In this document: positions 33,712 through 41,198 of the stretch, one piece after another
Layout of the letters: every line of letters starts with the position of its first letter
How positions within the stretch are numbered: the first letter of the stretch is position 1
Source: Escherichia coli
GTDB lineage: Bacteria; Pseudomonadota; Gammaproteobacteria; Enterobacterales; Enterobacteriaceae
Reading direction: 5' to 3' (one strand)
NCBI RefSeq assembly: GCF_003019035.1
Contig: NZ_CP027447.1
DNA length: 64,000 nt
Notes under the pieces: model-generated
Seen by the model: only the letters and a program-made list of their open reading frames with translations
Told to the model about the DNA's origin: nothing
The model's database searches: none
Translations under genes and position numbers: made by a program

Positions 33712-36237
<2,526 letters not shown>

Positions 36238-36322
36238 GTTTGTATATTAGAAGTCCGGCATCACTAATACGTGCAGATATCCGTGTATACTAGACGTATA
36301 AATTGTACAGGAGCACGATATC
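36238..36322 (+). promoter_or_regulatory. Putative promoter/operator of the ccd-like cassette
   Basis: 85-bp AT-rich spacer after folA with dyad symmetry (ATACGT ... ACGTAT around GTATAC) and SD AGGAG 11 nt before the ccdA-like ATG. Confidence 0.4.
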
Positions 36323-36556
36323 ATGACTGCAAAACGTACCACACAAAGTGTGACCGTCACCGTCGACCGTGAGTTAGTCAATCGCGCTCGTGATGCAGGC
36401 TTAAATATGAGCGCCACCCTTACGGTTGCGCTCAATGCTGAACTTAAAAAACATGCAGCAACACGTTGGCGTGAAGAGAACACAGAAGCTATCGCTGCGT
36501 TAAATCAATTGGCTGATGAAACCGGATGTTTCTCTGATGAGTACCGGAGCTTCTAG
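36323..36556 (+). CDS. ccdA: CcdA-like antitoxin
   Basis: 77 aa ORF MTAKRTTQSVTVTVDRELVNRARDAGLNMSATLTVALNAELKKHAATRWREENTEAIAALNQLADETGCFSDEYRSF resembles F-plasmid CcdA as recalled (ribbon-helix-helix N-terminus, ...RWREEN... core, acidic C-terminus); 2 nt before the toxin gene. Confidence 0.75.
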   Translation: MTAKRTTQSVTVTVDRELVNRARDAGLNMSATLTVALNAELKKHAATRWREENTEAIAALNQLADETGCFSDEYRSF

Positions 36557-36558
36557 CG

Positions 36559-36873
36559 ATGCAATTTACGGTATACTGCAGTCGCGGCAGGAACGCCGCG
36601 TTTCCCTTTGTTATCGATGTTACCAGCGACATTATTGGTGAGATTAATCGCCGTATCGTTATTCCATTAACACCTATTGAACGATTTAGCCGTATTCGCC
36701 CACCAGAACGGCTTAATCCAATCCTTTTACTGGTAGATGGCAAAGAATATGTGCTCATGACGCATGAGACTGCAACTGTTCCAGTTAACGCGCTGGGAAC
36801 GAAATTTTGCGATGCCAGCGCGCACCGAACGTTGATTAAAGGAGCATTAGATTTTATGCTCGACGGGATTTAA
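36559..36873 (+). CDS. ccdB: CcdB-like gyrase-poison toxin
   Basis: 104 aa [40 protein letters not shown]... resembles F-plasmid CcdB as recalled (MQFKVY..., ...VDVQSDII..., C-terminal ...W/GI); SD GGAG inside the ccdA 3-prime end. Confidence 0.8.
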
Positions 36874-37718
36874 GACGCGGCCGCCTCTCCCTCACCCATA
36901 TCTTTATGCCGATTCGACGGCTGGACAAAATACTGTTTATCTTCCCAGCGCAGGCAGGTTAATGTCCCGCCCCAACAGCAGCCGGTATCCAGCGCGTAAA
37001 TACCTTCCGGCGTACCTTTGCCCTCCAGCGATGCCCAGTGACCAAAGGCGATGCTGTACTCTTCAGCGACGGGGCCAGGAATCGCAAACCACGGTTTCAG
37101 TGGGGCAGGGGCCTCTTCCGGCGATTCTTTGCTGTACATATCCAGTTGACCGTTCGGGAAGCAAAAACGCATACGGGTAAAGGCGTTGGTGATAAAACGC
37201 AGTCTTCCCAGCCCCCGCAATTCCGGTGACCAGTTATTTGGCATATCGCCGTACATGGCATCAAGGAAGAAGGGATAGGAGTCACTCGACAGCACCGCTT
37301 CTACATCGCGCGCGCACTCTTTGGCGGTCTGCAGATCCCACTGCGGCGTGATCCCGGCGTGGGCCATCACCAGCTTTTTCTCTTCGTCGATTTGCAGCAG
37401 AGGCTGGCGACGCAGCCAGTTAAGCAGCTCGTCGGCATCCGGCGCTTCCAGCAGCGGTGTCAGGCGATCTTTCGGTTTATTGCGGCTGATCCCGGCAAAT
37501 ACCGCCAGCAGATGCAGATCGTGATTGCCCAGCACCAGACGTACGCTGTCGCCTAAGGATTTCACATAGCGCAGAACATCCAGCGAACCCGGGCCGCGCG
37601 CGACCAGATCGCCCGTCAGCCAGAGGGTATCTTTCCCAGGGGTAAATTCTACTTTATGCAGCAATGCGATCAGTTCATCGTAACAACCATGAACGTCGCC
37701 AATAAGGTATGTCGCCAT
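36870..37718 (-). CDS. apaH: Bis(5-nucleosyl)-tetraphosphatase (symmetrical)
   Basis: 282 aa [23 protein letters not shown]..., metallophosphatase motifs. Confidence 0.95.
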
Positions 37719-37724
37719 ATTCTT

Positions 37725-38102
37725 TTAATGAATGAGTGTGGGAACGGCGAGTCGGAATACGGGAATGTCGATGCTGAAAGGGACGCCATTTTCATCGATC
37801 ATTTCGTAGTGACCCTGCATGGTGCCCAGCGGGGTTTCAATGATTGCACCGCTGGTGTACTGGTACTCTTCGCCAGGCGCGATAAGTGGCTGGACGCCAA
37901 CCACTCCTTCGCCCTGGACTTCGGTTTCACGGCCATTGCCATTGGTGATCAGCCAGTAACGCCCCAACAACTGCACTGGCGCTCGCCCCAGATTGCGTAT
38001 GGTTACGGTATAAGCAAAAACGTAACGTTCATTATCAGGTGAAGATTGTGCCTCAATGTAGACGCTTTGAACCTGAATACACACTCGGGGCGAATTGATC
38101 AT
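37725..38102 (-). CDS. apaG: ApaG protein
   Basis: Recognised N-terminus [19 protein letters not shown] at ATG 38102 (125 aa); the supplied ORF extends 18 codons upstream. Confidence 0.9.
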
Positions 38103-38104
38103 CG

Positions 38105-41198
<3,094 letters not shown>

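Follow-up and report, generated by a model that had tools for sequence, protein, structure and literature searches.

When a toxin gene and a core gene converge so closely that their stop codons share bases, one may ask whether the two ends have shaped each other or have simply come to lie side by side. The question is raised by ccdB and apaH in the window (the whole stretch of Escherichia coli DNA that was analysed, 64,000 nucleotides of contig NZ_CP027447.1). The initial annotation allowed for either an extremely precise insertion or co-evolution of the two 3' ends, and proposed that convergent transcription could couple the toxin-antitoxin pair to the surA-pdxA-rsmA-apaG-apaH operon. We consider it likely that the TTAA in which both genes end is the right edge of a known islet, that both stop codons are native to their genes, and that the join between them is passive and inherited.

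A known islet between folA and apaH

The gene order in the window is kefC-folA-ccdA-ccdB-apaH-apaG. The parts of the locus are listed below.

35758-36237, plus strand: folA, dihydrofolate reductase, the core gene to the left of the islet (Pfam DHFR_1, 3.1e-60; annotation of the SCU-301 genome)
36238-36322, plus strand: spacer between folA and ccdA, the presumed ccd promoter/operator, with two 14-nt direct repeats and without a folA terminator
36241-36254 and 36284-36297, upstream of ccdA: the 14-nt direct repeats, TGTATATTAGAAGT and TGTATACTAGACGT respectively (repeat search)
36323-36556, plus strand: ccdA antitoxin gene, 77 aa (Pfam CcdA PF07362, 3.6e-26; RefSeq)
36559-36873, plus strand: ccdB toxin gene, 104 aa, ending ...DFMLDGI* (Pfam CcdB PF01845, 4.6e-31, profile positions 1-101 of 101)
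36870-36873, both strands: TTAA palindrome that ends both genes (direct reading)
36870-37718, minus strand: apaH, Ap4A hydrolase, 282 aa, the last gene of the surA-pdxA-rsmA-apaG-apaH cluster (ORF; Metallophos, 8.5e-17; annotation)
36885-36896, minus strand: two tandem GGNGAG units that encode Gly-Glu-Gly-Glu in the ApaH tail (junction alignments)
37725-38102, minus strand: apaG, the cluster gene directly upstream of apaH (SCU-301 annotation)

These parts make up the published ccdO157-type CcdA/CcdB islet, and the TTAA is its right-hand edge. A full-length CcdB-family toxin is preceded immediately and on the same strand by ccdA (the gap from the ccdA stop to the ccdB start is 2 nt), and the pair stands between folA and apaH in place of the 77-bp spacer of K-12. 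The initial annotation was right in identifying a ccdB-like toxin that converges on apaH without a spacer, as the Pfam matches and coordinates confirm, but it did not recognise the published islet in this pair. The spacer upstream of ccdA is 93% identical in E. albertii. Its repeats resemble the GTATAC-type operators of F-plasmid ccd, and the operator role is assigned from this likeness. The first repeat copy begins 4 nt past the folA stop, where K-12 keeps TTTGTATA..GAA. Chromosomal ccd islets are known to sit between folA and apaH, in an intergenic region described as plastic, and K-12 and HS have there a 77-bp spacer with a REP element instead (PMC3184786; PMC7167474; PMC7232551). The islet literature searched, to which the primary report of Mine et al. 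2009 does not belong, makes no mention of the stop-codon overlap itself.

Among 5426 complete E. coli genomes, the folA-apaH region is seen directly in three states. The 77-bp REP spacer of the K-12 type is present in 2857 genomes (53%) and the ccd islet in 2021 (37%), while 537 (10%) have a third state that consists of a truncated ccdA, a hypothetical ORF and a DUF4291 ORF. Alternative states of the locus, a ccdA-remnant state included, were reportedly described by Mine et al. 2009. In all three states, similarity to the window sets in again precisely at the apaH stop, TTAAGACGC, and BLAST boundaries agree with this point (query position 771 in the ccd-islet search and 1426 in the third-state search). 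The third-state occupant, with its ORFs on the apaH strand, was delimited by sequence reading in two strains.

13E0780, locus 2576-4000: third-state occupant
SMS-3-5, locus 7486-8910: third-state occupant

It comprises a 138-nt ccdA remnant, which corresponds to a 45-aa divergent CcdA, followed by a 155-aa hypothetical ORF and the 199-aa DUF4291 ORF. The latter two gave no PADLOC match, and the only Pfam match was DUF4291 itself. The DUF4291 ATG lies 24 nt past the apaH stop and is preceded by a ribosome-binding site of the GGAGG type; hence, this ORF may be co-transcribed with apaH.

Away from this locus, the window holds a further putative accessory insertion and a group of hypothetical ORFs. 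At 44973-45926, between rluA and djlA, the T3SS effector gene espY1 adjoins a transposase pseudogene fragment, and this region looks like another small accessory insertion. Three small ORFs on one strand, annotated as hypothetical proteins in SCU-301 RefSeq, lie between araD and polB (52528-53660).

Geometry of the shared stop codons

Positions 36868-36875 of the window read ATT TAA GA. In the ccdB frame (36559 + 3n) the last codon is Ile ATT (36868-36870) and the stop is TAA (36871-36873). On the minus strand, apaH has Ser TCT as its last codon and then the stop TAA at 36872-36870, the reverse complement of TTA at 36870-36872. The two stops thus have bases 36871-36872 in common, within a gene overlap of 4 nt (36870-36873). 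The initial annotation had placed this overlap correctly to the base, and RefSeq gives the same gene ends. Since TTAA reads TAA on either strand, one base out of register, both genes terminate correctly without any spacer. The same 4-nt overlap is present in the RefSeq annotation of SCU-301, O157:H7, CFT073 and E2348/69.

The lack of a spacer is locally unusual, because the remaining three convergent pairs within 50 kb of the locus have spacers of 16, 46 and 118 nt. As a geometry, the overlap is known and commonplace. Convergent 4-nt overlaps on CTAA, TTAA, CTAG or TTAG are documented as an over-represented, common class, and 58 convergent overlaps are reported for E. coli (PMC2174442). The TTAA at 36870-36873 places ccdB and apaH in this class of stop/stop pairs.

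The initial annotation named a true apaH or ccdB stop lying elsewhere, through an error of sequence or frame, as the circumstance that would overturn its observation. We looked for signs of this and found nothing in its favour. The window is 100% identical to the finished genome of SCU-301 over a 1,001-nt query, 2021 genomes match along the full islet and across its junction with apaH, and the joining sequence, GGGATTTAAGACG, is identical in each islet-bearing sequence read. The PGAP pipeline arrives at the same gene ends. At the protein level, CcdB matches its Pfam profile from end to end, its homologues stop at the same residue, and ApaH of other genera ends at the equivalent position. We therefore reject a sequencing or annotation error, the probability of which we regard as negligible.

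Gene ends and the origin of the join

If the stops of ccdB and apaH had been adjusted to each other, their ends should depart from those of homologues that lack the partner. For ccdB this is not so. Its closest plasmid homologues, from Hafnia (73% identity), Klebsiella aerogenes (70%) and an IncL/M plasmid (61%), are all 104 aa long and end in DFMLDG[IV]*. DNA similarity between the plasmid ccdAB genes and the window ends at the stop codon, and the sequences downstream are mutually unrelated. Hence, the conserved ccd unit ends there, and the ccdB stop is the family's own and native. In the donor search, the flanks of the best plasmid match (Hafnia, 73%) share nothing with the window, so that the 3' flank of the donor is not reconstructable.

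The ApaH tail leads to a similar result. In strains with the cassette ApaH has 282 aa and ends in ...D[ML]GEGEAAAS; in K-12-type strains it has 280 aa and ends in ...DLGEAAAS. The initial annotation had suggested a comparison of C-termini with and without the cassette, and these indeed differ, but it is the REP allele, without the cassette, that is derived. In Salmonella, Citrobacter koseri, Klebsiella pneumoniae and Enterobacter the protein always has 282 aa, with GEGE, GKGE, DEGE or GEDE ahead of the final four residues. Since all these outgroup genera have 282 aa, this length is ancestral and the 280 aa of K-12 is derived. At the DNA level, one of the two GGNGAG units (6 nt) is gone from K-12-type apaH (K-12 locus 816-840 compared with window 36885-36896). 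From its sequence, this loss appears to be a typical slippage deletion in the cassette-free lineage, and not an adaptation to ccdB. All 21 of 21 evenly sampled REP-state genomes align ungapped to K-12 over 181/181 nt, and non-REP genomes align to K-12 only beyond the apaH indel; in this sample, the 6-nt deletion and the REP state therefore go completely together.

The cassette-associated tail is also found where ccdB is absent. The window strain has an ApaH identical to that of ccdB-less third-state SMS-3-5 (WP_000257195.1), and O157:H7 shares its ApaH with ccdB-less third-state 13E0780 (WP_000257187.1). The apaH stop is likewise native to its gene. An end sequence specific to genomes with both partners, as a co-evolved overlapping pair would have, was not found. 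Adaptation of the ApaH tail to ccdB was considered and rejected, the same tail being present in outgroup genera and in ccdB-less strains. The proposal of co-evolved 3' ends consequently finds no support on either side of the join: the length and C-terminus of CcdB are those of plasmid homologues in unrelated contexts, and the ApaH tail that accompanies the cassette is the ancestral 282-aa form.

Separately, we noted that the codons for Ala-Ala-Ala in the ApaH tail of the window contain an 8-bp palindrome, GCGGCCGC (a NotI site), at 36877-36884. In O157 and E. albertii this position reads GCGACCGC or GTGACCGC, and the palindrome is probably incidental.

What stood between folA and apaH before the islet may be approached through the outgroup genera, in which the two genes are separated by 105-251 bp containing strong REP/BIME-type hairpins (folding energies of -47 to -111 kcal/mol). 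In Klebsiella, a clear hairpin with a T-run follows folA. The spacers lie as follows, in the coordinates of each genus's own locus.

Salmonella, 2650-2754: folA-apaH spacer
C. koseri, 2650-2765: folA-apaH spacer
K. pneumoniae, 2650-2900: folA-apaH spacer

In all four outgroup genera examined, the apaH stop is TGA (TCAGGx), as against TTAAGA in all Escherichia states. The end of apaH is TCAGGACGC in Klebsiella versus TTAAGACGC in Escherichia, and the two bases that differ are silent for apaH (TGA to TAA; Ser TCC to TCT). These are exactly the bases that make the TAA of ccdB, and some adjustment of the apaH end at integration is possible from this comparison. The join may have been made in one exact integration step, through microhomology with a T/TTAA already in place, or by the trimming of a spacer at a later time. 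As a description, the "extremely precise insertion" of the initial annotation holds, in that both stops are native and the whole ancestral spacer is gone; its counterpart, co-evolution of the 3' ends, is not supported.

One origin, which we hold to be a tentative possibility, would have the islet replace the last four bases of apaH (TCAG to TTAA), with the REP and third states both descending from a ccd-bearing ancestor. The TGA stop of every outgroup apaH and the contrast between Klebsiella and Escherichia fit such a replacement, and so does the presence of TTAAGACGC in each Escherichia state, with or without ccdB and K-12 included. However, two silent differences are unremarkable over the distance between E. 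coli and Klebsiella, because synonymous sites are near saturation, and the Escherichia sampled comprise E. coli and E. albertii, in both of which ccd is known at this locus. Descent from a ccd-bearing ancestor also agrees with the derived 6-nt deletion in the apaH tail of the REP state, and with the motif that REP and ccd states share just past the folA stop, which in ccd is one copy of the 14-nt repeat, although the latter resemblance may be due to chance. Of the reference strains compared, those of phylogroups B2, E and F have the ccd islet or its remnant, as does E. albertii, and those of A and B1 have the REP state. The REP/BIME spacers of the outgroup, in turn, fit a REP-type ancestor equally well. 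Should this origin be true, the TAA and the Ser TCT of apaH would be a silent molecular scar, and the REP spacer and 6-nt deletion of K-12 would be secondary.

Alternatively, in an Escherichia ancestor with a K-12-like spacer, a ccd unit ending in ...ATTTAA may have joined a pre-existing ...TGTGTTTAAGACGC at T/TTAA by illegitimate recombination that at once deleted the REP part of the spacer. This we likewise hold to be a tentative possibility. REP-containing spacers are the outgroup condition, and K-12 and the ccd states share TTTAAGACGC, one base beyond the gene overlap, but five shared bases are weak evidence. The ends of the islet showed no target-site duplication, terminal inverted repeats or integrase, the only notable repeat being the 14-nt one upstream of ccdA, which is consistent with joining that is not site-specific; the integration mechanism of such islets is stated in reviews to be unknown (PMC7167474). 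The apaH tail speaks against a simple form of this origin: the tail of the REP state, with its 6-nt deletion, is derived relative to that of the ccd state and the outgroups, so that the REP alleles of today cannot represent the recipient in unaltered form. The difference between TGA in other genera and TAA in Escherichia offers a cheap test of the ancestral state of the Escherichia locus.

In the reading that we prefer, a passive join between two native ends, the islet occupies the whole space between folA and apaH, the ccd unit finishes at the ccdB stop without a conserved 3' UTR, and the ancestral REP-containing spacer has been displaced as far as the coding sequence of apaH. The stops coincide because the ccd unit ends at the ccdB stop and the replacement extends up to apaH.

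The join is also old. In a scan of one genome per species, close CcdB relatives were confined to E. coli and E. albertii NBRC 107761. The latter has a decayed ccdAB between folA and apaH (locus 2175-2809): ccdA carries a 1-nt deletion near its 3' end, a frameshift, and its stop is changed from TAG to TGG, while the ATG of ccdB has become ATA. The GGGATTTAAGACG join to apaH is identical to that of E. coli. The E. albertii cassette is ~95% identical to the window, versus 90-94% for kefC, folA, apaH and apaG, a level that is compatible with either old shared ancestry or transfer along with the flanks. Within E. coli, ccdB of AVS0972 (locus 1190-1474) has a premature stop, G95* (GGA to TGA), and that of 20Ec-P-124 (locus 1060-1361) is a frameshifted pseudogene; in both, the DNA join to apaH is unchanged. 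In such decayed alleles the effective stop moves upstream, so the stop-stop overlap is lost and the DNA join is kept. The join is thus inherited irrespective of an intact toxin. It dates back at least to the time from which E. coli and E. albertii have the locus in common, and it outlasts the decay of ccdB.

Transcription across the join and comparison with known systems

A tool-based scan for intrinsic terminators gave none at or after either stop or after folA, with a count no higher than in shuffled sequence. A lenient scan for hairpins followed by a U-tract likewise gave no credible terminator after folA, ccdB or apaH and only weak internal candidates, such as a minus-strand U-tract near 36453, inside ccdA antisense (dG -15.5). 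No RNA family was found in an Rfam E-value scan of 35500-38200, the sole match being a chance miRNA (E 0.29). The plus-strand RNA is C-rich and G-poor for ~180 nt past the ccdB stop (C/G 1.4-1.9), a bias that is weaker on the other strand. Rho-dependent termination limits untranslated antisense RNA in E. coli, and the C-rich stretch weakly fits termination of this kind. Because no intrinsic terminator separates ccdB and apaH, the 3' end of each transcript is expected to lie inside the other gene, with the transcripts overlapping; Rho or weak hairpins within the genes probably determine where these ends fall. Similarly, the folA-ccdA spacer (36238-36322) has no terminator-like structure, and read-through from folA could therefore add to ccdAB transcription.

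ApaH is both an Ap4A hydrolase and an Np4A-RNA decapping enzyme. Coupling of the toxin-antitoxin pair to the surA-pdxA-rsmA-apaG-apaH operon by convergent transcription, as raised in the initial annotation, is possible given the predicted transcript ends. A more demanding explanation would have the zero-spacer layout kept by selection for read-through antisense RNA, which would tie ccdAB to the apaH operon or ApaH levels to toxin-antitoxin activity. With no intrinsic terminator on either strand at the junction, overlapping 3' ends are unavoidable, and E. coli and E. albertii have kept the same join. In O157 Sakai, ccdAB mRNA rises 5.3-fold at entry into stationary phase, on an array that was not strand-specific (PMC2241611), and antisense regulation through a 3' overlap has a precedent in mscL-arfA of E. 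coli (PMC10070815). However, the join is unchanged where ccdB is dead (in E. albertii, in the G95* allele and in the frameshifted one), which agrees better with inheritance than with selection. A REP spacer takes the place of the islet in over half of the E. coli genomes, and the apaH tail shows no cassette-specific change. In addition, ccdBO157 is, reportedly from Mine et al. 2009, evolving neutrally and decaying. Its decay is also noted elsewhere (PMC2654758). Given that dead alleles keep the join and that the REP spacer occupies the locus in over half of the complete genomes, we find selected coupling very improbable. A bolder addition to the proposal that the islet overwrote the end of apaH is that the obligatory overlap of 3' transcripts could link toxin-antitoxin expression to ApaH.

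Returning to the passive join that we favour, the overlap provides no evidence for co-evolution or a special regulatory design. The islet and the overlap class have both been described already, and the feature is a boundary detail of the former; mildly new are the derived status of the cassette-free ApaH allele and the TGA/TAA contrast with other genera. The boundary illustrates how small islets can fit an intergenic space exactly, with a stop codon as the limit on either side. Overall, the locus is a textbook toxin-antitoxin 'genomic islet', of little significance beyond housekeeping.

Among known systems, the closest is the ccdO157 islet of O157:H7, which has the same genes, order, folA-apaH position and 4-nt overlap (Wilbaux et al. 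2007; Mine et al. 2009, Genetics 181:1557). CcdB of the window is 96-97% identical to CcdB of O157 and SCPM, and is nonetheless an allele distinct from that of O157: at residue 7 (window 36577-36579) the window has Cys, whereas O157 and AVS0972 have Arg and SCPM-O-B-8794 has Leu. The ccdAB pair of plasmid F is from the same Pfam families, with the antitoxin gene likewise ahead of the toxin gene in the operon, and its CcdB also ends in ...GI right before the stop. There, CcdB is a gyrase poison and CcdA its antitoxin, and the pair acts in post-segregational killing. F-plasmid CcdB is, however, only ~35% identical to that of the window, and F-plasmid ccd is plasmid-borne, without a convergent core gene abutting it. 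In geometry, the locus is the same as generic 4-nt convergent overlaps, in which opposite-strand stops share the middle two bases; those are usually discussed as products of stop-codon mutation or genome compaction between resident genes, whereas here one partner is a horizontally acquired islet (PMC2174442). The pair mscL-arfA resembles ccdB-apaH in that the genes stand tail to tail and the transcripts are complementary at their 3' ends, which makes it a precedent for the proposed coupling; in mscL-arfA regulation was shown experimentally, whereas ccdB-apaH is known from sequence and its layout persists in decayed alleles.
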